From contig JALHDC010000003.1 in the NCBI GenBank assembly GCA_022840695.1, forward strand, positions 11,538-75,537: a stretch of DNA of 64,000 nt, in the 5' to 3' direction. The position numbers and the translations under genes were made by a program. Origin of the DNA: a bacterium (GTDB lineage: Bacteria > Patescibacteriota > Dojkabacteria > SC72). The notes below the pieces were generated by a model, which had not been told where the DNA came from, did not search any database, and saw nothing but the letters and a program-made list of their open reading frames with translations. Positions 7,569 to 35,418 of the stretch are shown here, piece by piece (position 1 is the stretch's first letter; each line of letters begins with the position of its first letter).

Positions 7569-8213
7569 TTATTGCAAAAATACTACTTCCACTCCTGCTT
7601 GATCCTCCTCAACCCTTTTTTTATTAACATTCAAATAGTTTTCATCTCGGACATTAGCAAAACCAAAATGTTTTATGAATTCCTCTTTACCTTTCAGATC
7701 TTTATTATTTCCTCCCTCCTCTTTATATGCACAAGGGATCAATATTGCAGGATCTGTATTTGAAATAATTTTTTCTATTTTTTCAAAATCCATAAATGTA
7801 ACTCCATCCCCTACAGGAATGATTAAGACATCAACATCACCTAAATCTTTTGTATCCTTAGGATCGAATGAATTATCTGTACCTCCCATATACACTACTC
7901 GGATATTTTTTTCATCAATGAGATAGAAATTATCACCGATTCCCCTTCTAATCATTATTCCCCCAACCTCATACTCTCCAGGAGTGTATACCTCCATAAC
8001 CTTCTCTCTTTTATCTCCAACTACCTTATTATCCAACTTATTGTCCTCCAAAATACTTTTCTTTGGATCTTTGATATCTGTAAATATACATACATCTGCT
8101 CTTGTCTTTGGGAAATTTACACCAGAATTGGCTAACATTAAAGGATCTGTCAGTGCTGTAATATTATCACTTGTTAAAAGAAAACTTGTCCACCCTATCT
8201 TTTTAATTTTCAT
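7569..8213 (-). CDS. MBL-fold (Lactamase_B_2-like) protein, apparently lacking the canonical HxHxDH metal site
   Basis: N-terminus MKIKKIGWTSFLLTSDN..LTDPLM resembles UPF0173/MBL-fold hydrolases. No His-rich motif seen. Confidence 0.35.
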   Translation of the reverse strand: MKIKKIGWTSFLLTSDNITALTDPLMLANSGVNFPKTRADVCIFTDIKDPKKSILEDNKLDNKVVGDKREKVMEVYTPGEYEVGGIMIRRGIGDNFYLIDEKNIRVVYMGGTDNSFDPKDTKDLGDVDVLIIPVGDGVTFMDFEKIEKIISNTDPAILIPCAYKEEGGNNKDLKGKEEFIKHFGFANVRDENYLNVNKKRVEEDQAGVEVVFLQ

Positions 8214-8294
8214 ATATTGTTTTTAGTAAAGTTTAAAATACATGTACTAGTATGTAAGTATATCAAATTCTTCTATGGGGCAGTAATTTCTTTA

Positions 8295-8516
8295 TTAATC
8301 CACAAGACCTAGCGATTTTCTGACATCCTCAACCATTGATTCTTTCATCTGTTGCTTTATCAATTCTGTCTTAAGACTTTCCAATGAGGATATACTCGCC
8401 TGAAGTTGTGTCATTACCTTTGTATCATTTTCTGAAGAAAGAATCATCTTTTTAACACCTCCTACCTGTCCTTCGACTCTCTTAATTCTATTCTGAATAC
8501 TCTTTGAATATTTCAT
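8295..8516 (-). CDS. CsoR/RcnR/FrmR-family (DUF156) small transcriptional repressor-like protein
   Basis: NRIKRVEGQVGGVKKMI...TQLQASISSLESL matches the RLKRIEGQVRGI..Q..A family signature. No Cys/His metal ligands present. 73 aa. Confidence 0.6.
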   Translation of the reverse strand: MKYSKSIQNRIKRVEGQVGGVKKMILSSENDTKVMTQLQASISSLESLKTELIKQQMKESMVEDVRKSLGLVD

Positions 8517-8561
8517 ACATACAATATATCATGAACTTTCTTTCGGGCAAAGAGTAAAAGG

Positions 8562-9245
8562 TTATGCTTTTCTAAAAGAAGTCATCTTCTCTGTCAACAC
8601 TGACCCTGCAAATGCGAGTATGAATGTTGCGCCAAAAATCTCAAGAGATTCCTCTGCAATTACATATTCATTATATCCTTCTTGAAACATAATATGTGGC
8701 ATAGTATTTACATATTCTATGGCAATAGCGAGAAGGAAAAGTCCCCATCCAATTGCCATCATCCAAACATTCGGGATTTTTTCTCTAGCAAATCTAATGA
8801 CAAAGTAGGCAACTATCAGAGTAAGGATGATGAAAGGGCCTATGTAATATGGAAGCCAAGTTGTAGATGCATATCCTAAGTCAGTAATACTACTTTCATA
8901 CAGAACAGCACTCTCTCCAATAATTTCCTTCATATATGTAGAAATATTTTCATGGAGCTGCCCTATTTCATCTATACCTAAAAAGAAAGTCATACCGGCG
9001 AGTAAAACCCAAAACCATTCTCTTTTTAATGTCCCCTTTTTTAAATATATCAAGCACACAATCAAGAGTGATACAGTTGTAGAAAATATTAATTTGGAAC
9101 CTTGATATATTGTTGGTAGATTGGATTCGTAGTCTAAATGAAAAACAGCCATTTGAGGGAATATTAAATGTAACAGTATTACTAATACATCAATACTTAG
9201 AAACAGAAACAAGAAAGAAAATGGATTTTTAAAAAAGTTTTTCAT
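8562..9245 (-). CDS. integral membrane protein (about 6 TM), function unknown
   Basis: Hydrophobic helices throughout. No known motif recognised. Confidence 0.4.
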   Translation of the reverse strand: MKNFFKNPFSFLFLFLSIDVLVILLHLIFPQMAVFHLDYESNLPTIYQGSKLIFSTTVSLLIVCLIYLKKGTLKREWFWVLLAGMTFFLGIDEIGQLHENISTYMKEIIGESAVLYESSITDLGYASTTWLPYYIGPFIILTLIVAYFVIRFAREKIPNVWMMAIGWGLFLLAIAIEYVNTMPHIMFQEGYNEYVIAEESLEIFGATFILAFAGSVLTEKMTSFRKA

Positions 9246-9334
9246 ACCTCATTAACAGTATCATATTAAAACAGAAATTTGAAGATTAACTCTCCTTTAC
9301 TCCCCTATTATGTTCTGATATAATCACACTCGTT

Positions 9335-9673
9335 ATGAAGAAAGATATACATCCAAAGTATAATAATAAATTGCAGATCACATGCTCATGTGGAAACAGC
9401 TTTGTAACTGGTTCTACATTGGATCAAGACAACATTACTGTAGAGATATGCTCAAAATGCCATCCTTTCTATACTGGAGAACAGAAGATTGTTGATACAG
9501 ATAATCTTGTAAGAAAGTTTGAAGAGAGAGTTGCTAAATCTAAAACTTTGTCTTTCAAGAGTAAAAAGGAAAAGATGGAGAAAAGAAGAAAGAAGATTGA
9601 GGAGGCTGGAAATAAACCTACCTCTACCCTCACACTTAGAGATATGCTTGAAAACGCAAAGGTTTCTAAGTAA
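9335..9673 (+). CDS. rpmE: 50S ribosomal protein L31 with Lys-rich C-terminal extension
   Basis: MKKDIHPKY..CSCGN..CSKCHPFYTG: classic L31 zinc-ribbon signature. Confidence 0.9.
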   Translation: MKKDIHPKYNNKLQITCSCGNSFVTGSTLDQDNITVEICSKCHPFYTGEQKIVDTDNLVRKFEERVAKSKTLSFKSKKEKMEKRRKKIEEAGNKPTSTLTLRDMLENAKVSK

Positions 9674-9696
9674 CAAATTCCCTTAAATAATTTAAA

Positions 9697-10821
9697 GTGA
9701 TATTATCCATTATGGATATTGCTGTATTAGAAAAAAAATATAGTCAAAACAAAGCAAAAGAAAAAGCAGATTCATTGCAGAATGAGATTTCAGAAGCTAG
9801 TGTAAAAGGTAATACTCAAGAGATATCTCAATTGAGCTCTGATTTAGGGTATTATTCTGAACTTGCAAGAAATATATCCGATATACGAGCTAGTATTAAA
9901 AACTATAATGATGCCATATTAATGTCAAAAAACGAGAGCGATCCTGAGATAAGGGAGATGGCAACTGAAGAAGTATCAGTATTAGGAGAGAGAATTGAAG
10001 AGTTAGATAAAGAAATTAAGAAATTGCAGATATCAAGGAAATTCGAGGATCATGATGATAATAAATCAGCTATTTTGGAAATAAGGGCCGGAGCTGGAGG
10101 TGATGAGGCAACACTTTTTGCTGCAGATCTTTTCAGAATGTATAAGGGTTTCTCTGCTAGTAGAGGTTGGAATTTGGAGATAATACACAGTAGTGTTTCT
10201 GAATCTGGAGGATATAAAGAGGTAGTAGCACATATAGAGGGGAAAAATGTTTTCAGAGATTTAAAATATGAAAGTGGTGTACACAGAGTTCAACGAGTCC
10301 CTACCACAGAATCTTCAGGCAGAATACATACCTCCACAGCTTCCGTAGCTATCCTACCTGAAGCAAAAGAGGTTGACATACAGATTAATCCTGAAGACTT
10401 AAAAATTGAGGTTATGAGGGCATCTGGAGCCGGAGGACAGTGTGTAAACAAGACAGATTCAGCAGTTAGAATAACCCATTTACCAACTAACTTAGTTGTT
10501 AGCTGCCAAGAGACTAAGCATCAGGCACAGAATAAAGAAAAGGCTATGGCAATACTAAGAGCAAAGCTATACGACATGAAGCAAGAAGAGGAAGATACCA
10601 AAAGAGATTCTATGAGATCAAAATTAATTGGTTCTGCAATGAGAGCTGAAAAGGTAAGAACATATAATTTCCCACAAAATCGTATAACAGATCATAGGAT
10701 AAAGAAATCTTGGTTTAATATAGAATCTGTATTAAATGGTAACCTCGATGAATTGATTAATGATGTTAGGGAAGGAATTATGAATGAATTGTTAAAGAAT
10801 CAAGAGGAAAGTGGAGAATAA
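9697..10821 (+). CDS. prfA: peptide chain release factor 1
   Basis: GGQ motif (SGAGGQCVNKTDSAVRITHLPT). RF1-type tripeptide region RVPTTESSGRIHTS. Followed by prmC. Confidence 0.93.
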   Translation: MILSIMDIAVLEKKYSQNKAKEKADSLQNEISEASVKGNTQEISQLSSDLGYYSELARNISDIRASIKNYNDAILMSKNESDPEIREMATEEVSVLGERIEELDKEIKKLQISRKFEDHDDNKSAILEIRAGAGGDEATLFAADLFRMYKGFSASRGWNLEIIHSSVSESGGYKEVVAHIEGKNVFRDLKYESGVHRVQRVPTTESSGRIHTSTASVAILPEAKEVDIQINPEDLKIEVMRASGAGGQCVNKTDSAVRITHLPTNLVVSCQETKHQAQNKEKAMAILRAKLYDMKQEEEDTKRDSMRSKLIGSAMRAEKVRTYNFPQNRITDHRIKKSWFNIESVLNGNLDELINDVREGIMNELLKNQEESGE

Positions 10822-27027: not shown

Positions 27028-28149
27028 TTAATATGTTAATTTTGCTGTTTTAGGTAGTACAAAATTTTCTGTATTCTGTATTCCTAAAACTTCTTTCAAT
27101 ATTTCTTTCTCTACTTCCTTCTCCTCTTTCTTTTCTACCACCTCCTCTTCTAATATATCATTCTGGGATTCTTTTTCATACTTTAAAGTCTCTGATGTGA
27201 AAGCATATGGAAGTCTTGTTATGCAAAAGCTCTCACATACCGGTTGTACATGGGCACCATTTATCCAACCTCCATCCTCTCTATATGCAAGTACTGTTAC
27301 AGCATTAGGACTAAGCCAATTGTAGTTATTGCTTCCATAAATTGCACACTCTGTTTTGATGTTTGGGTTAGTTATTTTGTAGTATCCTAAGTTCTCACTG
27401 TACGGGATTGAGTATTGCAGAGTAATTTCTTCAAGAGCATTCATATCAAATTGAGTACTGTATGTGTTGTGCTCAAAAGATATGTTATTTAATTTCTCAC
27501 TACTTTTGTTTGTAATCTTAATTTCAATATCCAAGAAATCCCCATTCTCAAAAATTTGAATATCCCCAACTTCTAAGGGATTTGCAATTTCAACTGTATC
27601 TAGGATCTTTAAACCTTTAACATCATCATCTACTATTCCTAATCCTGGGTACTCTTTCAAAATTCCTTCCTTTCTAATAACTTTGTTATCAAATGAGACA
27701 TCTATGATTGAGAATTTTGGAGTATGATCTGAGTGTTGTACTAGATTATTTAAATTTCCCATATCTGGAACACTTCTACTAAATGGTACAACTATTTTCG
27801 ATATATTTACTTGGTGCCCCGTGTCGTTGAAATATGAATAAAGGATATCTATTTTTGTCCCTGGAGAACCTGACACCTTGTCTAGTACATCAGGAAGCCT
27901 TTTCATATACCAGAGGGATGTTAGAGAGGATATTGTATGGTTTTGTATTGCAAGATCCGTTGTTGTGCCTACTAAATCATCTTCTTCATATGATATTGAA
28001 TTTTCTGTATCTGAATTATTTGGGTATTGTGAGATTGAGAATGCTGTAGTTTGATAGTATTCATTTAATGCACCATCTCCTGAGATATCAAAACCATCGG
28101 CATATGTATGATATGGAAAAAACAGAAGGAAAATGAAAAATATGAGCAT
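27028..28149 (-). CDS. secreted hypothetical protein
   Basis: N-terminal signal peptide (MLIFFIFLLFFPYHTYA). Acidic C-terminal tail. No known motif. Confidence 0.4.
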   Translation of the reverse strand: MLIFFIFLLFFPYHTYADGFDISGDGALNEYYQTTAFSISQYPNNSDTENSISYEEDDLVGTTTDLAIQNHTISSLTSLWYMKRLPDVLDKVSGSPGTKIDILYSYFNDTGHQVNISKIVVPFSRSVPDMGNLNNLVQHSDHTPKFSIIDVSFDNKVIRKEGILKEYPGLGIVDDDVKGLKILDTVEIANPLEVGDIQIFENGDFLDIEIKITNKSSEKLNNISFEHNTYSTQFDMNALEEITLQYSIPYSENLGYYKITNPNIKTECAIYGSNNYNWLSPNAVTVLAYREDGGWINGAHVQPVCESFCITRLPYAFTSETLKYEKESQNDILEEEVVEKKEEKEVEKEILKEVLGIQNTENFVLPKTAKLTY

Positions 28150-28191
28150 GTATATATGTTTAAAATTTATTTAAACATATTTTACTAAACA

Positions 28192-28210
28192 ATTATGAAA
28201 TCTAGATTAA
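28192..28210. repeat. 19-mer ATTATGAAATCTAGATTAA (copy 2 of 3), overlapping the stop codon of the GT2 gene
   Basis: Identical to 6208-6226. Confidence 0.45.
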
Positions 28211-29826
28211 CTCTTCTTGTCCTTAATCCTTACCTTTTCTGTTATGTAGAAATTTCTTTTGAATTTTCCCCTACCTAACATCATCTCCGTAATAGCTTGA
28301 ACGTATGGTATGAAAGAGAATGTTAGCATATTTACAGTTATTAGGTATGTCTCAAGGAAATCTAATATATGTCTCCACCATTTCCAACCTTCAGGAACAG
28401 GAGTTATTTTTCTTCTGTATATTACTATAGCGATATTGGAAAGCATAACTAGGGTAAATACATAGCTTAATATCCTAGGGAGATTGTAGGAGAAGATTGA
28501 ATACTGATAGCTTGGGTTTAACCAGCCCATTATGTTTAATCCAAAAGTAAGAACAAAAACAATTGTGAGAAACCAGAGATATTCAAACATCATTTTAAGC
28601 AGAGCTATTTTTCTTCTTATTGGAAAATCATCCTTATCTGTGGACATAACTGCAAGAGAGATTGGGTAATTAATTATTCCCCACCCCCATCTATATTGCT
28701 GTTTATAGAATGATACATGAGATTTCAGGAAGGTCTCGTTTTCAACTGCGTCGTTATATGTTGGTATATATACTTCTTGATTTTTAAATCTACCCTTAGT
28801 TCTCAGTATTGAATTCCAATAAAAGGCCGTATCATCATTTGGAATTTCTGGATCCCAAAACTCTACTTCTTTTAAAGTATTCAGGTTAACAATATATGAA
28901 GAAAATGTATCCCTAGTATATACTTTTTCATTCACAAAAGGGATCTCAAGTACCCTATCTAATACCCACATATGCATAACCACTAATGTAAGCATATTTG
29001 ACTGAGTTCTAATAATCGGAGGAACACTCCAAATGTTGTTATTAAATGTATGTATGGCAGAGGCGTAAAAGGTATAATCCGGATCATCTACGGTTAAATA
29101 TTTGTATGTAACTGCCGATAGGTATTTAGGATGAGGTCTTAAATCTGAGTCACAAGTTATGAGTAGATAGTCAGATATATCTTTTCCTTCTCTCTCTAGA
29201 TCTTTTACTAAGTTCCTTGCAGCCCAATTTATATTTGCTCCTTTAACACCAACTATCTCCCCAGGAATATTTGAAGGGTGTACATAATATCGCATACTAC
29301 CAAATTTATATCCGTACTTCTCTTTCAGTTTATTAAAGTTCTCTACTTGAAAATCCTTCTTCCTCTCCTCCATTGCCATGACAACATCCATTTTTTCTGC
29401 ACCAATGTCACTTTTTGCCCATGCTTCAAAGGATGGTTCCAAAATATCTAAGCTTTCCGAATATACCGGACAGAGGTATATATATCTTAAATTGTCCATT
29501 TTGGGAGAGTTTAATTCCTCTATTTTACCTACCCAATCAGTATTTATACTTTCTTTCATCCTCTTTATACCAATATACCCACCTATTACAAACTTAACAG
29601 TTCTAAAGAACCAATATGCTACAAGAAAAGAAATATATATTACCATTGCAACATCCCATTTCATTATGGCGAAGGATATAGGCAACAAGAGCAGAGTCCA
29701 TACGATAATTCCGGGAACCATTTCAAAGAATCTTCTTTGAAACTTAGGCATATCCGAAGGAAAACCAGAATCTCTACCTTTTGGTCTGTAGGAATTAGTA
29801 TCAGTGTGTTGTTTAATATCGTTCAT
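28207..29826 (-). CDS. membrane-bound processive family-2 glycosyltransferase (cellulose/chitin-synthase-like)
   Basis: DxD (LLITCDSD). QxxRW motif (QQYRWGWG). Multiple TM helices N- and C-terminal. Confidence 0.75.
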   Translation of the reverse strand: MNDIKQHTDTNSYRPKGRDSGFPSDMPKFQRRFFEMVPGIIVWTLLLLPISFAIMKWDVAMVIYISFLVAYWFFRTVKFVIGGYIGIKRMKESINTDWVGKIEELNSPKMDNLRYIYLCPVYSESLDILEPSFEAWAKSDIGAEKMDVVMAMEERKKDFQVENFNKLKEKYGYKFGSMRYYVHPSNIPGEIVGVKGANINWAARNLVKDLEREGKDISDYLLITCDSDLRPHPKYLSAVTYKYLTVDDPDYTFYASAIHTFNNNIWSVPPIIRTQSNMLTLVVMHMWVLDRVLEIPFVNEKVYTRDTFSSYIVNLNTLKEVEFWDPEIPNDDTAFYWNSILRTKGRFKNQEVYIPTYNDAVENETFLKSHVSFYKQQYRWGWGIINYPISLAVMSTDKDDFPIRRKIALLKMMFEYLWFLTIVFVLTFGLNIMGWLNPSYQYSIFSYNLPRILSYVFTLVMLSNIAIVIYRRKITPVPEGWKWWRHILDFLETYLITVNMLTFSFIPYVQAITEMMLGRGKFKRNFYITEKVRIKDKKS

Positions 29827-29865
29827 AGTGTAGGATATTCTATTCTAAATACACTTAAATTTCCA

Positions 29866-30774
29866 CTAGAGTTCTAATTTCTTAGGATATATACCTTCAT
29901 CCACTAATTTTCTTAACTTTTCTCTAACAATTGGTGCATCTTCTTTATATGTAACACCAAACCAGCTACTTGTACTTTCTAATATCTTTATTTTTATATC
30001 TCCATCCTTAACCATATCACTAAATATCTCAGGGAGAAGAATCTCATCTGTTAGATCATCTTTTATATTTTTAAGAAATATATCGAATCTGTTTTCTAAA
30101 TTTTCAAATACTGAAGGGTGTACTGCGTAGGAGCTCATTGCTGTGGGTATATCATCTTCGAATGTAGAAATTTCTCCTGTCTGTTTTTTACCTTGAATTA
30201 TTCCTTCATCGTTTCTAGCTACTTCAAATGTCTCTTCAATATGGTCTAGATATCCATCTTTTGTGAAGCATATTCCTCTTTTGACAGTACCATGTTCGCT
30301 TAATACATTTTTTAATTTGTAGGTAGGGATTGAGTATAGTTTTTCGGAACACTCTTCCCTGAGGAACTTAGCTACTACATCGAATGTATCTTTACCAAAG
30401 AAGTCATCTCCACTAATTATGTATGTTGGCTCCTTAATTACATCTTTTGCTACCAGAAATGCTTGTCCTGTCCCCCACGGCTTCGTTCTTTCGGGATTAA
30501 GTTTGTACCAATCAGGGAGCATATCTAGGGATTGGAATACATAGCTAATATCTATTTTGTCTTTATATTTTTCCATAAATACCTCATTAAATGCCTCTTC
30601 CATATCTGGTCTGATTACAAATACAAATCTATCAAATCCTGCCCTTACGGCATTATATATAGAATAGTCTATTATGGTTTCTCCACTTGGACCAAAGCCT
30701 TCCATCTGTTTAAGACCACCGTATCTACTACCCATACCGGCTGCTAGTACAAAGAGGGATATTTTTGAGTTCAT
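29866..30774 (-). CDS. sugar-1-phosphate nucleotidyltransferase-like protein
   Basis: N-terminal LAAGMGSRYGG NTP-transferase signature. Directly upstream of the GT2 gene. Confidence 0.65.
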   Translation of the reverse strand: MNSKISLFVLAAGMGSRYGGLKQMEGFGPSGETIIDYSIYNAVRAGFDRFVFVIRPDMEEAFNEVFMEKYKDKIDISYVFQSLDMLPDWYKLNPERTKPWGTGQAFLVAKDVIKEPTYIISGDDFFGKDTFDVVAKFLREECSEKLYSIPTYKLKNVLSEHGTVKRGICFTKDGYLDHIEETFEVARNDEGIIQGKKQTGEISTFEDDIPTAMSSYAVHPSVFENLENRFDIFLKNIKDDLTDEILLPEIFSDMVKDGDIKIKILESTSSWFGVTYKEDAPIVREKLRKLVDEGIYPKKLEL

Positions 30775-30929
30775 ATTTATGTGTGTATATGAAGTTATTT
30801 AATATATAGATGGTATCACATCTATGTGACTTATAGAATATTAAATTTCGTTAATAATTTACATATAGTCATTGAACTGGAGGGATTAGGTACTACGCTT
30901 GACGTAGATTTATTATGGGGAAGAAAATA

Positions 30930-31016
30930 CGGAGAGGGTGGGATTCGAACCCACGGTACAGTAACCTGTACAACGGTTTTCAAGACCGTCCCATTCGACC
31001 ACTCTGGCACCTCTCC
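30930..31016 (-). tRNA. tRNA-Ser (anticodon UGA), type II
   Basis: Acceptor GGAGAGG/CCTCTCC. Discriminator G. Anticodon loop CUUGAAA. Long variable arm. T-loop GGTTCGAATCC. Confidence 0.85.
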
Positions 31017-31076
31017 AAAAGCTTTAGAATTATATCAAAATTTGACTAATTAATATAACTAAAATATTATTATCCT

Positions 31077-32279
31077 ATGAAATCTGCCAATATATTTAGA
31101 GTATGGTTACTACTTTTTCCCCTGCTATTTTTTACTACCAATGCTCTAGCTAATGAATTAGATTCTACAAATTTTAAAATGATTGGAGTTTCTACATCTG
31201 GAGGTGGAGGTATAATGGAATCTACTAACTACTCCCTACTTTCCACAGCAGGACAGATAAGTGCAGATCCTAGAAATTACTCTACTAACTATCGTATTAA
31301 TCAAGATCCTTCAGCCAGATTTACTGCTGCACAGCCAGGAATTCAATGTTTTGAAACAACTACTAATGGAAGTACAGATTGTACATCTGGACCAACAGAA
31401 TTGCTAAGTGGAGGAATGGTTGCCATCTGTGGTCCTGATGGTTGCTATGACAAAGCTAGGTTTGAGATAGAGCCATATGTAAATCCAGTAGATACACTAT
31501 ATATGGTACAAATATCAACTGATAATTTTTCTTCTGATATTAAGTGTGTTGATGGTTCTGTATTTACACCAAAGACTTTAAGTAGTTGTGATATTAATGA
31601 TTTTAGAACTGAGGAGGATTGGGAGGATGAGGTTTTTAATATCAAAGGTTTGCAATCCAATACTCAGTATCATATTAGAATATCTGCATTGCATGGGGAT
31701 TTTAGCCAATCAGATTTTAGTATTGTAGAGAGTGCTACTACTGCACAAGGACTAATAGAGTTTGATATTGATATTGCAATATCAAGTGGAATAGATACTG
31801 AAACAACTCCCCCCTACTCTGTTACATTTTCCAGTGGTAGTGAATTAATTGCAGGAGCTGCAGCTTCCACAGCATCAAGTTTGATTTGGCTTGATGCTAG
31901 AAGTAGTTCCGCTGGAGGCATTGCTATAATACAGTTTGGTAAATATGGGGGTCTGTATAGCGCAACTACTACCGAAACTATCGAATCTGCAACTGAAAAT
32001 CTAGATACAACTGGAGCAGAGGGTTTTGGATTACAAAGTTATTATATAGATTATGAAAGTTCAGGTTACTTAGGAGAGATAACATCATCAACTGATTATG
32101 CAGGATCCAACAACGAGGTTGGAATTGTATCTACTACCGCCAACATGATTTACAATGGAGATGGCCCCATTAATGATGGACGAATGGGTATGTATGTTAA
32201 AGCAAGAGCAGGAGCTAGTAGAACAGCTTCTTCTGATTATTCTGAAGAAATCTATTTTGTTATAGTTCCGAGGTATTAA
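31077..32279 (+). CDS. secreted Ser/Thr/Gly-rich surface protein (first gene of 4-gene surface operon)
   Basis: Signal peptide ending ALANE. Low-complexity S/T/G-rich, several Cys. Single WxL-like SSLIWLDA segment. Confidence 0.5.
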   Translation: MKSANIFRVWLLLFPLLFFTTNALANELDSTNFKMIGVSTSGGGGIMESTNYSLLSTAGQISADPRNYSTNYRINQDPSARFTAAQPGIQCFETTTNGSTDCTSGPTELLSGGMVAICGPDGCYDKARFEIEPYVNPVDTLYMVQISTDNFSSDIKCVDGSVFTPKTLSSCDINDFRTEEDWEDEVFNIKGLQSNTQYHIRISALHGDFSQSDFSIVESATTAQGLIEFDIDIAISSGIDTETTPPYSVTFSSGSELIAGAAASTASSLIWLDARSSSAGGIAIIQFGKYGGLYSATTTETIESATENLDTTGAEGFGLQSYYIDYESSGYLGEITSSTDYAGSNNEVGIVSTTANMIYNGDGPINDGRMGMYVKARAGASRTASSDYSEEIYFVIVPRY

Positions 32280-32352
32280 ATACAGCTCTTGACTTAATTA
32301 AAGAGCTAATATATCTTTTATTATTAATTAAGAACTTGGCTGCCCTACTTAA

Positions 32353-33486
32353 ATGAAACACCAAATAAAACTTGTTTCCGCCATAACAATAACTCTACTT
32401 GTTTCATTTTTTTTCTTAGTCTTGTTTCCAGGATTTAAATCTAATGCAGGAACATTGCCTGCTTTGTATTTTTACCTAAGTAGAATGAAGGCCGATTTGG
32501 CAGGAACAACAGGACAGGTAGTTGAATATGTTTTGGCATTTGAAGTTTCTCAGAGTTTTTCAGCAGATGGACAAGTGGAGATCACTTTCCCATTAGCAGA
32601 TAGTAGTGAATGGTGTAGAACAGCGGGAAATCTTATTGCTACTGGTGTAACAGCTTCTGCTCCAGACATGGCTACAACCGATTTTGATATTGATAGTGCA
32701 TTACCTGATACAGGAAGTGGCTTAGTGGCTGCTTGTACTCAGGGGAATGGAACAACTACGGTTGATACAATAACAATTACTGAGGTTGGAGCACTTTCCA
32801 TAGATACAACCTATGGTGTGAAGATAACTAATGGCTCATCAGCCGGTGTGTTGGGTACATCCTCTACAACTGGACATAGAACAATAACAGTTGAAATTTC
32901 AGAGGGTGTTACTATTGATTCGAAAGCATTTAATGTATACATCATAGCTAATGACCAAGTAGTTGTTTCTGCAACAGTATCTGGTGCACCATCTGTAACA
33001 TGCCAAATCAGTACTAATACAGTAAGTTTAGGAACACTCTATCCAGGAGGTTCTTTTGTCACTGCTACACATACAATTGGAACAAGCTCATCCAACAGTG
33101 GTTACTATTGGGCCGCTTATGGAGAAGGTGACGGATCAACAGATGCAGGTCTTTACAAACCTCCAGCATCACCATACTTAATAGCTTCAACGGGAAGTAC
33201 TACTATCGACCTTACTGGTGGTAATGCGGAAGGTTTTGGGATGACTGTTTCTGATCCTGACACTGCCGGAACAGCTGTAGTACCAACAGATTTCCAAACA
33301 GGAACTTTAGGTCAGTTTGGATCATTAGATAGGGCTGCTGCAGGTGCCAGATTAATTCTCTACCAGCCTGATGAGCAGGGAAGTAATGAAAACTCAACAA
33401 TTACTTACGGTGCCAGAGCAAGTTCTGCTGCAGTATCTGGTAGTTATCAGGAAACTGTAACATTCGTTTGTGGTGGTTATTATTAA
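32353..33486 (+). CDS. secreted Thr/Gly/Ser-rich surface protein
   Basis: N-terminal hydrophobic signal/anchor, T/G/S-rich, ends ..TFVCGGYY. Co-directional with neighbours, with tiny spacers. Confidence 0.5.
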   Translation: MKHQIKLVSAITITLLVSFFFLVLFPGFKSNAGTLPALYFYLSRMKADLAGTTGQVVEYVLAFEVSQSFSADGQVEITFPLADSSEWCRTAGNLIATGVTASAPDMATTDFDIDSALPDTGSGLVAACTQGNGTTTVDTITITEVGALSIDTTYGVKITNGSSAGVLGTSSTTGHRTITVEISEGVTIDSKAFNVYIIANDQVVVSATVSGAPSVTCQISTNTVSLGTLYPGGSFVTATHTIGTSSSNSGYYWAAYGEGDGSTDAGLYKPPASPYLIASTGSTTIDLTGGNAEGFGMTVSDPDTAGTAVVPTDFQTGTLGQFGSLDRAAAGARLILYQPDEQGSNENSTITYGARASSAAVSGSYQETVTFVCGGYY

Positions 33487-33488
33487 TT

Positions 33489-34490
33489 ATGAAAAATCAA
33501 AACCTATATCCTGCCCCATGTTTTTACAAAAAAACTACCCTACTAGCAATCTTCCTCATTGCCTTTCTCTTTGTTTTTAAAACAAACACATTTGCACAGT
33601 CTTCCTTAACAATAGGAACATCTCCTTCTTCTGAAAAGCTTCAATTACAACCTGGAGAAACATATGAAGGAGAAATAGTTGTATGGAATCTATCTGACAA
33701 AACTACCACATATCAAATATACACAAGAGGATTTAGACAGGTAGAGAACCAACCTGGGACAGCAGTTATGCTTACAGAAGCAGAAGAAAGAAAAGCCCTC
33801 TACTCTGCTGCATCTTGGATTACTGTTAGTAAGACAGAGATAGAATTGATTCCGAATAAGAATGAAAAAATATTTTACAAAATCACTGTCCCTGAAGATA
33901 TTACCAAAGGAGAATATACTGCTATAGTTGCATTTATATCTGATACACAAGCCAAATCTCTAGGTACAACAGCTTTCACAAATCTTTCATCAGGAACACC
34001 ATTCTTAATTAAAATTGGTGATGAATTTGTAGAGAATGCTGAACTACTTAAATTTACATCAGATAAAAATTTCTATGAATTCCCTACCGTCACATTTGAA
34101 ACTAGGATAAAGAATTTGGGAGATACCCATATCTCTCCTGTTGGAGAAATCCTTCTTACAAACATATTCAATCAAGAAATTGGGAAAATAATATTCAATG
34201 CAAATGGACAGAGTATTCTACGAGATAATACGGGAAATTATGAAAGTGTATGGGATTTCGGATCTTTCCTAACAAATGATAATAAGCTCATACTAGGGCC
34301 AATAGATGCAAAATTAGTAGTAACCTATCGAAATTTTCAACCCGGTTTTGCTCCATTAGTAGCTGAAACTTCTTTCTGGATAATACCTTGGAAATACATA
34401 ATAATTGCTTTACTCATCATCATTACAATCATGATATTATTAAAGATGAGGAAGAATAGAAAAGAGCAACCTCAACCATTACCTAAGTAA
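33489..34490 (+). CDS. cell-surface protein with signal peptide and C-terminal TM anchor (DUF916/DUF3324-like architecture; inferred)
   Basis: Signal peptide, beta-rich body (..EIELIPNKNEKIFYKITVPEDITKGEYTAIVAFIS..). C-terminal IIIALLIIITIMILL plus KMRKNRK. Start moved to second Met just after upstream stop. Confidence 0.5.
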   Translation: MKNQNLYPAPCFYKKTTLLAIFLIAFLFVFKTNTFAQSSLTIGTSPSSEKLQLQPGETYEGEIVVWNLSDKTTTYQIYTRGFRQVENQPGTAVMLTEAEERKALYSAASWITVSKTEIELIPNKNEKIFYKITVPEDITKGEYTAIVAFISDTQAKSLGTTAFTNLSSGTPFLIKIGDEFVENAELLKFTSDKNFYEFPTVTFETRIKNLGDTHISPVGEILLTNIFNQEIGKIIFNANGQSILRDNTGNYESVWDFGSFLTNDNKLILGPIDAKLVVTYRNFQPGFAPLVAETSFWIIPWKYIIIALLIIITIMILLKMRKNRKEQPQPLPK

Positions 34491-34497
34491 AAAGTAA

Positions 34498-35418
34498 ATG
34501 TTTTTAAAGAAAATCTTTCTAACAATATGCTTTGTTTTGTTGTTTCTAATACCTTCGATGCAGAAAGCACTTGCTAATACAGTTTTTCCATACAAAGTAG
34601 AACGAATTATCTCAAATCAGGAAAGAACAAAAGAAACTGTTTCTTTTAGAAATGACGAAAGAAAAGACATCTATGTATCACCCTTAGTATATTCATACAA
34701 CCCCCAAACATTAGAAATTACTACAACACAAAGCTATATCTTTGTGAGGGCAGATATTGATATATTTAAAGTAGAACCAAATGAAGTTCTAACATTGAAT
34801 TACGAGATTGTACCACCACTTAACATAGAGCCTGGTACATATTTTAATTTAATTGTATTTAGGACAGAACAAGAAAATTCCTTTATACAAGAAGACAATC
34901 CCGTTGGAGTAACGAATAATCTGTCTCACCTTGTTGTATTACATGTAACCGACTCTGAAAGTGCAGTATATGGAATAACTACTGAATTTGCACAAATTAG
35001 CTTAGAAATAGTAGAGAAAGGAATACCATTTATTAGACCAACTAGAGTTAAATATGTTTATCAAAATATAACAAACTATGTGCTTAATCCTAAGGGGGAG
35101 ATACAGATATTTAGTAAAAAGGGAAAATACGCACCGATATATATAAAAATTAATTCAAAAGAAGAAAAGCTATACCCTGGGGGGATCATAGAAGAAGAAT
35201 TTGAAATAGACAGATATGATATTACAGATATATATACAGAAAGGACTATAATTGGAAGATTTTACAATGGTATAGATGAAAATATTATTCTCAAAGAAAC
35301 AACTTTAGAGGTAAACTATACGATATTAGCACTTGGAACAATTACATTGATTGCACTGATTGTTTTAGTAAAAGCTATAGTACAAGATAGGAAGAGATCT
35401 AAAAAGAAGTCTGCATAA
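34498..35418 (+). CDS. paralogous cell-surface protein with signal peptide and C-terminal TM anchor
   Basis: Same architecture as the previous gene (..FKVEPNEVLTLNYEIVPPLNIEPGTYFNLIVF..). C-terminal anchor plus RKRSKKKSA. Confidence 0.5.
   Translation: MFLKKIFLTICFVLLFLIPSMQKALANTVFPYKVERIISNQERTKETVSFRNDERKDIYVSPLVYSYNPQTLEITTTQSYIFVRADIDIFKVEPNEVLTLNYEIVPPLNIEPGTYFNLIVFRTEQENSFIQEDNPVGVTNNLSHLVVLHVTDSESAVYGITTEFAQISLEIVEKGIPFIRPTRVKYVYQNITNYVLNPKGEIQIFSKKGKYAPIYIKINSKEEKLYPGGIIEEEFEIDRYDITDIYTERTIIGRFYNGIDENIILKETTLEVNYTILALGTITLIALIVLVKAIVQDRKRSKKKSA

Follow-up and report, generated by a model that had tools for sequence, protein, structure and literature searches.

A conserved four-gene block in Dojkabacteria that probably encodes a minimal Pam-type pilus with WxLIP-related anchored proteins

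The four-gene block and its export signals

The window, a stretch of 64,000 nucleotides from a Dojkabacteria bacterium, contains four open reading frames, here called g1 to g4, which were confirmed on the plus strand at the coordinates listed below together with the other features discussed.

31042..31070, plus strand: best match to a sigma-70-like promoter (TTGACT-17-TATTAT), a candidate ending 6 nt upstream of the g1 ATG
31077..32279, plus strand: g1, putative PamT-like tip subunit or adhesin, 400 aa (domain models, NF058579, g2-like C-terminal domain)
31152..31316, plus strand: N-terminal extension of g1 with three STNY[KSR][ILM] repeats, strongly conserved, with disorder predicted for the monomer
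32289..32317, plus strand: promoter-like site (TTGACT-17-TATCTT) within the g1-g2 spacer
32353..33486, plus strand: g2, putative PamA/B-type shaft pilin, 377 aa (NF058581, hhalign against distant CPR pilins, jackhmmer)
32953..32985, plus strand: g2 inter-domain linker D-Q-V-V-V-S-A-T-V-S-G, putative donor strand (invariant residues, low pLDDT)
33489..34490, plus strand: g3, putative PamC/D-type membrane-anchored chaperone of the WxLIP (DUF916 plus DUF3324-like) superfamily, 333 aa (hhalign, HMM and PDB-profile links)
34498..35418, plus strand: g4, putative second chaperone paralogue, 306 aa (hhalign against g3, WxLIP and distant CPR chaperones)

The public gene calls on identical contigs likewise give products of 400, 377, 333 and 306 amino acids. 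All four genes are co-directional and are separated by spacers of 73 bp (g1-g2), 2 bp (g2-g3) and 7 bp (g3-g4). A TTG at position 33468 was rejected as the start of g3 in favor of the ATG at 33489, because all orthologues and the exact-sequence record have 333 amino acids. An AxA-type site comes after the N-terminal hydrophobic segment of each of the four products (ALA/NE, SNA/GT, TFA/QS and ALA/NT, with the slash at the site). A second hydrophobic segment, found at about residues 296-318 in g3 and 273-295 in g4, precedes a Lys/Arg-rich tail. The open reading frames, the AxA sites and the gaps of 2 to 73 bp agree with the initial annotation, which had described co-directional genes with signal peptides and short spacers, and the C-terminal transmembrane (TM) helix and basic tail that it had assigned to g3 and g4 were seen as well. 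Of the two promoter-like sites, both weak candidates, the one upstream of g1 could serve the operon and possibly give a near-leaderless transcript, and the one in the g1-g2 spacer could be an internal promoter serving g2; for both, the number of such sites in the region was not above that in shuffled controls.

The block is kept in about 70 Dojkabacteria genomes, and the order g1-g2-g3-g4 recurs in essentially all complete loci of this class within a set of 79 that were fetched, which is far beyond chance and bears out the conservation of the four-gene arrangement that the initial annotation had proposed to check. The wider neighborhood, including the genes for GT2, NTP-transferase, RNase HII, CysS, RecR, YbaB and DnaX, is collinear too, and therefore synteny inside the class proves little. 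CPR loci elsewhere, among them those of Parcubacteria, Falkowbacteria and Doudnabacteria, have between one and three pilin genes adjoining one to three chaperone genes, so that the pilin and anchored-chaperone families are adjacent in other CPR classes though every flanking gene differs. In Actinobacteria and Firmicutes, a WxLIP homologue adjoins a small secreted partner.

Relationships of g1 and g2

The g1 and g2 products had been described as low-complexity proteins rich in Ser, Thr and Gly. The composition was confirmed (S/T/G content of 31.5% in g1 and 36.1% in g2), and the low complexity was not: AlphaFold2 (AF2) gave confident beta-sandwich models, with a mean pLDDT of 82.7 for one protein and 86.1 for the other, and the orthologues could be aligned, with 52 to 100% identity across the 79-sequence alignments. 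Foldseek searches against the PDB returned only generic tandem Ig-like adhesin matches (TM about 0.2).

The g1 protein consists of a signal peptide (residues 1-25), STNY-type repeats (about 26-80), an fn3-like region (about 85-222) matched by single fn3 chains at TM 0.6-0.7, and a pilin-type C-terminal domain (about 225-400). Within its N-terminal extension, where the pLDDT is 31-52, residues S30, P65, Y68, S69 and Y72 are invariant, and the STNY motif is also present in the g1-like protein of a distant CPR locus, L082. Some g1 orthologues have an inserted Laminin_G_3 domain. The segment SLIWLDA of g1, previously taken as WxL-like, holds no W-x-L motif, as Asp occupies the second position after the Trp.

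The g2 protein has a signal peptide (residues 1-32), an N-terminal beta-sandwich (about 33-200), a linker (about 201-211) and a C-terminal pilin domain (about 212-377) that ends in ...SGSYQETVTFVCGGYY. Four of its cysteines (88, 128, 217 and 373) are invariant, and invariant cysteines are present in the g1 as well as the g2 alignments. The C-terminal domain is common to both proteins (aligned at E 1.3e-4 to 1.8e-3), and the hydrophobic linker strand is missing from g1, the segment being absent in the hhalign alignment with g2. In the g2 linker, which matches a DDVxVTAxV segment of distant CPR pilins, D201, V203, A207 and V209 are invariant and the AF2 pLDDT is below 50 at 205-211. Invariance in a segment left unstructured by the monomer model suggests an inter-subunit contact, and by analogy with PamA and PamB the linker may act as the donor strand. 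With its two beta domains and an invariant linker of low confidence, the g2 model fits the published pilin plan.

The NCBIfam models of Pam proteins gave no match for the window's own g1 and g2, and all matches elsewhere were below the curated cut-off, reaching at most 39.6 bits against 55. At this level, NF058579 (PamT) ranked first among the families for 6 of 79 g1 orthologues (best E 9.3e-6) and NF058581 (CPR_Pam_pilin_C) for 12 of 79 g2 orthologues. Among distant CPR homologues of g2, the latter model matched those of L082 (E 5.1e-10, model positions 2-148 of 148) and L078 (E 1.8e-9). The alignment of g2 with distant CPR pilins that match NF058581 had an hhalign probability of 97.6% (E 4.6e-12), and jackhmmer merged distant CPR pilins, g2 and g1. 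By these top-ranked, below-cut-off matches, g1 and g2 group with the CPR Pam pilins, g1 with PamT and g2 with Pam_pilin_C. Because of this grouping, the fallback offered by the initial annotation, an unrelated adhesin or pilus-like assembly, came nearer the mark for these two genes.

Relationships of g3 and g4

Both proteins have a signal peptide (residues 1-36 in g3, 1-26 in g4) and two Ig-like domains (about 37-160 and 161-295 in g3), followed by the TM helix and the basic tail, which reads QDRKRSKKKSA in g4. A conserved hairpin, GFRQ.ENQPGTA in g3, is shorter in g4. Their paralogy, already suspected, was borne out by profile methods only: hhalign aligned them at 90.8% (E 1.2e-6, 218 columns) and an HMM of the g4 family picked up g3 at 20 bits, against a BLASTP E of only 0.22.

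Several comparisons link the two proteins to WxLIP. The g3 product scored 26.1 bits against PF06030 (DUF916/WxLIP_PGBD; gathering score 27.3), a family matched by 71 of 72 g3 orthologues. The hhalign values for g4 were 99.3% (E 1.2e-20) against distant CPR chaperones and 97.1% (E 7.6e-11) against WxLIP, and hhalign comparison with the WxLIPs of Actinobacteria and Firmicutes gave 98.1% and 97.1%. When a CPR-only profile was compared with the PDB, Enterococcus faecium WxLIP1 (9i25_C, 9i1y_A) was the sole significant match (E 1.1e-7); a broader chaperone profile matched it at E 1.9e-10 with both domains covered. A tblastn search with the L082 chaperone found an annotated Arthrobacter DUF916 protein. 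PF11797 (DUF3324) had no match in g3 or g4. By sequence, g3 and g4 clearly belong to the DUF916/WxLIP superfamily, within which they are distant paralogues, and a PapD-like fold is assumed for them. This homology between Pam-type chaperones and WxLIP, which appears to be unreported in the searchable literature, ties together two surface systems.

A Pam-type pilus and the alternatives

The Pam pilus, a kind of pilus already known, was first described in 2026 in Candidatus Mycosynbacter amalyticus (Saccharimonadia), in a preprint whose text does not mention Dojkabacteria. It includes the pilins PamA, PamB and PamE (PDB entries 25PZ and 25QA for PamA/PamB), the tip PamT, the anchored chaperones PamC and PamD (WP_260763277.1, WP_260763284.1) and the terminator PamR, and its proteins were experimentally shown to form filaments (bioRxiv 10.64898/2026.03.03.709456; NCBIfam NF058579, NF058581). 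A hairpin strand of PamC/PamD is predicted to complete the partner's beta-sandwich (same preprint), as AF2-multimer predicts for WxLIP.

We consider it probable that these four genes form a minimal pam-type operon in a monoderm CPR bacterium, which builds a thin surface fibre from products that are all exported through Sec. The gene layout, the signals for export and anchoring, the conservation, the family links and the domain models are shown by the analysis. By analogy with the M. amalyticus cryo-EM structures and AF2 models of WxLIP-WxL pairs, we infer that g2 would be the shaft pilin, the linker of an incoming subunit filling the C-terminal-domain groove of the preceding one by donor-strand exchange to give a linear fibre. 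The g1 protein would have the same acceptor domain and, as it has no linker, could sit only at the distal tip, where its fn3 module, with an additional lectin-like Laminin_G_3 domain in some species, may be displayed as an adhesin. The g3 and g4 proteins would be L-shaped, two-domain Ig-like chaperones held in the cytoplasmic membrane by their C-terminal helix, capping the open groove of new subunits with a strand of the conserved hairpin before passing them to the fibre. Neither an usher nor an outer membrane would take part.

Likeness to the M. amalyticus proteins was judged through the NCBIfam models and published descriptions. On this basis, the two systems share a restriction to CPR bacteria, Sec export of every component, a tip subunit with no linker, paired cysteines in the pilins (reported for PamA and PamB), two paralogous chaperones in which a signal peptide precedes two Ig-like domains and the TM helix is C-terminal, and the absence of an usher. 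They differ in that the block has only four genes, with no third pilin and no ATP synthase or CorB neighbors; a PamR-like terminator or anchor (two FnIII domains plus TM) and PamE were looked for in the window and none was found. In addition, g1 is multi-domain whereas PamT is the C-terminal domain alone, and the matches to curated models lie below their cut-offs.

A true Csc/WxL cell-wall complex seems unlikely. In it, g1 and g2 would be highly diverged WxL proteins, one "large" and one "small", bound to peptidoglycan without covalent linkage and stabilized by the WxLIPs in a static adhesion platform; the genuine WxLIP-superfamily membership of g3 and g4 speaks in its favor. WxL/Csc clusters are known in Firmicutes and small-WxL plus DUF916 gene pairs in Actinobacteria, WxLIP being composed of DUF916 (PGBD), DUF3324 (HBD) and a TM helix (PMC9772566, PMC10599100, PMC1534035; PDB 9i1y, 9i25). 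The plan of g3 and g4, basic tail included, is that of WxLIP, as are approximately their sizes (306-333 aa versus 320-380 aa) and the predicted hairpin mechanism. [quoted passage not shown] Furthermore, the Paenibacillus WxL C-terminus, ...AGTYKSVFTYTATSGI before the stop, resembles that of CPR pilins, ...AGDYENTLTYIATPTF before the stop, DAGYTLSM resembles DDGYTVTV, and about 110 residues separate motif 1 from the C-terminus, matching small WxL proteins. Against these resemblances, g1, g2 and ten distant homologues had no match to PF13731 (WxL) at E<=1, and neither the two Trp residues nor the Asp and Arg conserved in WxL motif 1 are present. Profiles of g1, g2 and CPR pilins aligned by hhalign to WxL proteins of Actinobacteria and Firmicutes at E 0.01-0.5, no better than unrelated controls (g3 domain 1, E 0.013), in a test of low power, as two genuine WxL sets matched each other at only 25.7% (E 7e-4). 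The curated models that recognize the g1 and g2 families are instead those of filament-forming Pam pilins, while WxL proteins are believed to attach to peptidoglycan in monomeric form and not to polymerize. The block also differs from WxL clusters in having a pair of WxLIP paralogues where one WxLIP is usual and no LPxTG protein, and in g3 and g4 the PF11797 match is missing and the PGBD N-terminal motif NQIDKxxxYFDLK is not apparent. The DUF916/DUF3324-plus-WxL likeness drawn by the initial annotation thus stood for DUF916 and failed for WxL; as DUF916 similarity and conserved synteny were both found, its idea survives on its own terms. This explanation and the pilus would merge if WxL proteins prove to be donor-strand subunits.

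The collinearity of the whole Dojkabacteria neighborhood and the generic adhesin-like PDB matches would also suit a set of non-polymerizing proteins, in which g1 and g2 are independent adhesins or an S-layer-like coat and g3 and g4 unrelated anchored Ig-like receptors, co-located through collinearity. That is quite improbable given the adjacency of both families in CPR classes with different flanking genes, the small secreted partner kept beside WxLIP homologues in Actinobacteria and Firmicutes, and the contact suggested by the g2 linker. A classical chaperone-usher-type or sortase-type pilus is hardly credible. There is a resemblance to Pap/Fim in the Ig-like subunits, which have a C-terminal G-x-Y...T-F-x strand, and in the chaperone-like proteins of two domains, and the analogy, after the preprint, extends to incomplete Ig-like subunits, a chaperone strand, donor-strand exchange and an extra binding domain on the tip adhesin. 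However, the block has no usher, sortase or LPxTG motif, and no similarity of the chaperone family to PapD/FimC was found in Pfam scans or PDB profile searches, where the broad chaperone profile retrieved no such chain at E<=10. CPR bacteria are believed to have no outer membrane, and the candidate chaperones are membrane-anchored in a system with no periplasm. The donor strand is an N-terminal extension in chaperone-usher pili and would be an internal linker in the Pam-type fibre proposed here.

A conserved four-gene operon in Dojkabacteria

Four co-directional genes lie at 31077-35418 of the window, separated by spacers of 73, 2 and 7 bp:

31077-32279, + strand: g1, secreted protein of 400 aa
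32353-33486, + strand: g2, secreted protein of 377 aa
start at 33489, + strand: g3, membrane-anchored protein of 333 aa
34498-35418, + strand: g4, membrane-anchored protein of 306 aa

The start of g3 was placed at the ATG at 33489 and not at the TTG at 33468, because 333 aa is the length of its homologues and of the exact-sequence record. As the initial annotation had indicated, the four products carry signal peptides, recognizable as a hydrophobic stretch with an AxA-type cleavage site behind it, and g3 and g4 end in a hydrophobic helix and a Lys/Arg-rich tail.

Homologues with a named source belong to Candidatus Dojkabacteria (WS6), a class of the CPR/Patescibacteria. About 250 homologues were detectable for each of g1, g2 and g3, and alignments of 72-79 sequences per protein (52-100% identity to the window protein) were built for these three. 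The synteny check suggested with the initial annotation showed that the order g1-g2-g3-g4 is kept in essentially every complete Dojkabacteria locus (79 loci fetched). The block is a real, conserved operon. Gene order within Dojkabacteria is no proof of functional linkage because the whole neighbourhood is collinear in the class, and this objection is overcome by distant CPR loci in which the same families adjoin amid other flanks. On contigs of Parcubacteria, Falkowbacteria, Doudnabacteria and other CPR, genes of the g3/g4 family, one to three per locus and mostly in tandem, adjoin genes for one to three secreted proteins with the end ...QEAGDYxNTLTY[IV]xTPxF. The flanks of these loci, which include an FGE-sulfatase protein, a small TM protein and a dockerin-bearing protein, are wholly unlike those in Dojkabacteria. 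These distant secreted proteins are homologous to g2 (hhalign 97.6%, E 4.6e-12) and join both g2 and g1 in an iterative search.

Around the block, promoter-like and terminator-like matches did not exceed their frequency in shuffled sequence, and the best of the promoter-like sites ends 6 nt ahead of the g1 ATG. At the other end, g4 and a convergent RNase HII gene share 20 bp at their 3' ends (35399-35418), with no terminator-like site between the two genes. A tRNA-Ser(tga) gene (30929-31017, - strand) lies 60 bp upstream of g1 on the opposite strand. The 75-aa ORF antisense to it (30826-31053, + strand), which is a gene call in public assemblies (comparison locus L097, 5329-5556), is almost certainly spurious. 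Beyond it, a divergent trio at 27028-30774 (- strand) is collinear with the block in all Dojkabacteria loci examined. Its products are a secreted 373-aa protein without a family match, a GT2-like glycosyltransferase of 539 aa with multiple TM segments (weak match to PF13632) and an NTP_transferase. The three may be genes for envelope glycans, and in other CPR classes they were not found linked to the pilus genes.

Kinship of g3 and g4 with WxLIP proteins

BLASTP did not link g3 to g4 (E 0.22). The paralogy proposed in the initial annotation was recovered at the profile level, where hhalign aligned the two families over 218 columns (90.8%, E 1.2e-6). The DUF916 assignment proposed for them was also borne out. 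PF06030 (DUF916, now WxLIP_PGBD), the model of the first domain of the WxLIP proteins of WxL/Csc clusters, gives g3 a score of 26.1 bits, below its gathering score of 27.3, and is matched by 71 of the 72 g3 orthologues. Annotated DUF916 proteins of Firmicutes and Actinobacteria score 23-33 bits on the same model, a range that includes g3. Comparison sets were taken from annotated plasmids and consisted of Actinobacteria DUF916-type pairs and canonical Paenibacillaceae clusters. Against the combined WxLIP set, the g3 family aligned at 98.1% (E 8e-14) over 209 columns across both domains, g4 at 97.1% (E 7.6e-11) and the distant CPR relatives of g3/g4 at 99.0-99.6%. With a plain HMM of the annotated proteins, g3 scored 62 bits. 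When a profile of 24 CPR-only sequences was searched against all PDB sequences, the sole significant match was Enterococcus faecium WxLIP1 (9i25_C, 9i1y_A; E 1.1e-7); with Gram-positive sequences added to the profile, the same protein was matched at 1.9e-10 over both domains (profile positions 35-274).

The second domain is included in the hhalign alignment with WxLIP (g3 residues 57-285) and in the match of the broader profile; the CPR-only profile reaches only 6 bits there in the PDB search. DUF3324 (PF11797), the model of the second WxLIP domain, did not match g3 or its orthologues. On the basis of the hhalign, HMM and PDB-profile matches, membership of g3 and g4 in the WxLIP superfamily is established at the level of sequence, with g3 strictly below the Pfam threshold.

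Pilin-like proteins and the Pam pilus

The Pam system is the pilus of Candidatus Mycosynbacter amalyticus, with the pilins PamA, PamB and PamE. Further products of its operon are PamT, a tip pilin that lacks the linker, the terminator PamR, and PamC and PamD, two FimC/PapD-like chaperones with a C-terminal TM helix, whose strands are predicted to enter the open C-terminal domain of the pilins (2026 preprint, bioRxiv 10.64898/2026.03.03.709456).

The products of g1 and g2 had been described as low-complexity proteins. Though rich in S/T/G (31.5% and 36.1%, respectively), both gave confident AlphaFold2 models (mean pLDDT 86 for g2) and are not low-complexity. The g2 model consists of two beta domains (approximately residues 30-200 and 212-377) and a linker (201-211, DQVVVSATVSG) that is nearly invariant, yet has a pLDDT below 50 and is the sole low-confidence stretch of at least 3 residues. 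As modelled, g2 fits the Pam pilin plan of signal peptide, N-terminal beta-sandwich, single linker strand and putative open, Ig-like C-terminal domain. In g1, an N-terminal segment with STNY-type repeats is followed by an fn3-like domain and a C-terminal beta domain. The three STNY[KSR][ILM] repeats (residues 26-80; 31152-31316) are strongly conserved across the phylum, disordered according to AlphaFold2 and also found in a Doudnabacteria homologue (L082, 4359-5453); repeats of this type are absent from the text of the Pam preprint (bioRxiv 10.64898/2026.03.03.709456). Pairwise BLASTP of g1 and g2 was not significant and profiles were needed: the C-terminal domains align with E 1.8e-3 as part of the full-length proteins and 1.3e-4 when compared alone, with the AEGFG and ARA..Y.E..FV motifs in register, and in the hhalign alignment the g2 linker has no counterpart in g1. 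Foldseek searches of the PDB with both models returned generic tandem Ig-like adhesins only.

Matches to the NCBIfam Pam models were found among the orthologues, all of them below cut-off. NF058581 (Pam pilin C-terminal domain) was the top family in 12 of the 79 g2 orthologues (best E 1.6e-5) and matched the distant secreted CPR proteins with E values from 5e-10 to 9e-6, in each case below its 55-bit cut-off. NF058579 (PamT tip protein) was the top family in 6 of 79 g1 orthologues (best E 9.3e-6). The g2 protein of the window itself did not match NF058581, no NCBIfam model for Pam chaperones matched the g3 family, and the four window proteins, scanned by themselves against Pfam and NCBIfam, gave only the sub-threshold DUF916 match. 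Profiles of g1, g2 and the distant pilins found nothing in a copy of the PDB that lacked the Pam structures 25PZ and 25QA, and a tblastn search of plasmids with the C-terminal domain of g2 returned nothing.

By plan, g1 would correspond to the tip, g2 to the shaft, and g3 and g4 to the chaperones. The last two resemble PamC and PamD in being two paralogues with a signal peptide, two Ig-like domains (by the WxLIP alignment), a TM helix and a basic tail. The tip, donor-strand and chaperone roles would follow from these likenesses. Differences are also apparent: g1 has N-terminal domains added to the PamT plan, and the block has neither a third pilin nor PamR. No PamR-like gene (two FnIII domains and a TM helix) is present within the four genes, and the window's six-frame ORFs of 80 aa or more included no other protein of the pilin or chaperone families. 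The block is probably a new, reduced form of the recently described Pam pilus. If so, this pilus also occurs in the class Dojkabacteria, pared down to four genes and missed by the current curated models, which suggests that its distribution in CPR is much wider than has been reported. Most CPR bacteria are uncultured episymbionts and, to our knowledge, almost nothing is known of their host-contact organelles.

Several variants of the arrangement were observed. In one Dojkabacteria genome (L018, 3607-5993), the shaft pilin gene g2 is present in two tandem copies, recalling the PamA/PamB pair. Nine g1 orthologues (P0253, P0267, P0285, P0287, P0290, P0294, P0303, P0312 and P0313) carry a concanavalin-like Laminin_G_3 domain (PF13385); these tip subunits of 627-652 aa occur in a subset of Dojkabacteria (loci L010, L015, L027, L042, L063 and L071), and the domain looks like a swappable lectin-like module of the tip. 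Larger pam-like clusters in Parcubacteria and Falkowbacteria (L077-L083; e.g., L078, 2315-12736) have two or three pilins and three chaperone paralogues, after which come an FGE-sulfatase-domain protein (PF03781, 4e-19), a small TM protein and a protein of about 600 aa that combines a pilin-like N-terminus with Big_13 and a dockerin. In L078, the third chaperone (8092-9720) has a C-terminal LytR_C domain (3e-13).

Relationship to WxL clusters and a possible common mechanism

The initial annotation had proposed a Csc/WxL-type cluster. [quoted passage not shown] The WxL model PF13731 did not match g1, g2 or ten distant homologues, and the g1 segment SLIWLDA, initially read as WxL-like, is not W-x-L. 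Comparisons by hhalign of g1, g2 and the CPR pilins with true WxL proteins from plasmids of Actinobacteria and Paenibacillus (full-length and domain-trimmed profiles, default settings and -mact 0.05) gave E 0.01-0.5, equal to the negative controls, in a test that is weak because even the true WxL sets of Actinobacteria and Firmicutes align with each other at only 25.7%. WxL and the CPR pilins do resemble each other at the level of motifs, in the C-terminal strand and the hairpin before it, and the WxL domain may be homologous to the Pam pilin C-terminal domain. CscD, a small LPxTG protein, is frequent but optional in WxL/Csc clusters; here, no product carries an LPxTG motif and there is no fifth gene in the block. 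A WxL profile searched against the PDB produced spurious matches to ribosomal protein uS11 only and no recognisable solved WxL chain, and tblastn from Paenibacillus WxL and WxLIP toward Lactobacillales clusters returned Paenibacillaceae only. Other known assemblies were also considered. A classical chaperone-usher pilus was rejected: Pfam scans found no PapD-type chaperone or usher family, PDB profile searches found no PapD/FimC chain, and no gene in the block is of usher size. An S-layer protein, TasA/camelysin and a sortase pilus were set aside, as supporting domains or accessory genes are absent here.

The homology between the chaperones and WxLIP appears to be unreported and is the part worth following up: the Pam preprint mentions neither DUF916, DUF3324 and WxL nor Dojkabacteria (bioRxiv 10.64898/2026.03.03.709456), and a full-text literature search found no paper in which donor strands or pilus chaperones are connected with WxL or DUF916. 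The WxLIP paper independently predicts that a hairpin strand of WxLIP completes the WxL beta-sandwich. Because the sequences of g3 and g4 connect both chaperone families, a single conserved mechanism is the most economical reading. In Pam and WxLIP systems alike, a chaperone anchored in the membrane would act by strand complementation and, in the CPR case, linker-strand exchange would then build the fibre. We tentatively hypothesize that Pam chaperones and WxLIP (DUF916/DUF3324) are one ancient family, that the Csc/WxL clusters of lactobacilli, enterococci and Listeria could be usher-less, chaperone-assisted donor-strand systems, and that the WxL domain might be a diverged incomplete Ig domain of the Pam-pilin type, maybe capped or even polymerised and not simply stuck to peptidoglycan. 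If true, a monoderm-wide "chaperone without usher" fibre superfamily would span CPR, Actinobacteria and Firmicutes. The molecular role of Csc/WxL clusters has been unclear since 2006, and the homology, together with the solved structures 9i1y and 9i25, provides a concrete testable mechanism for these clusters in Gram-positive commensals and pathogens.

Descriptions of WxL systems usually confine them to Firmicutes. In Actinobacteria, small genes for secreted proteins were found with a gene of the DUF916 type directly downstream, and 7 of 10 of the small proteins match PF13731, one of them above threshold. This conserved pair, a small divergent WxL gene upstream of a DUF916-type anchored protein, is carried by plasmids of Arthrobacter, Streptomyces, Clavibacter and Curtobacterium (L084-L093) and often adjoins MarR-family regulators. 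On a Cohnella plasmid (L094, 1-6861), three adjacent small genes were scanned with no Pfam match, WxL included; there, a DUF916-domain protein follows the gene for a TadA-type Flp-pilus ATPase and four small hypothetical genes, which may be a further context of a WxLIP-like protein beside a pilus system.
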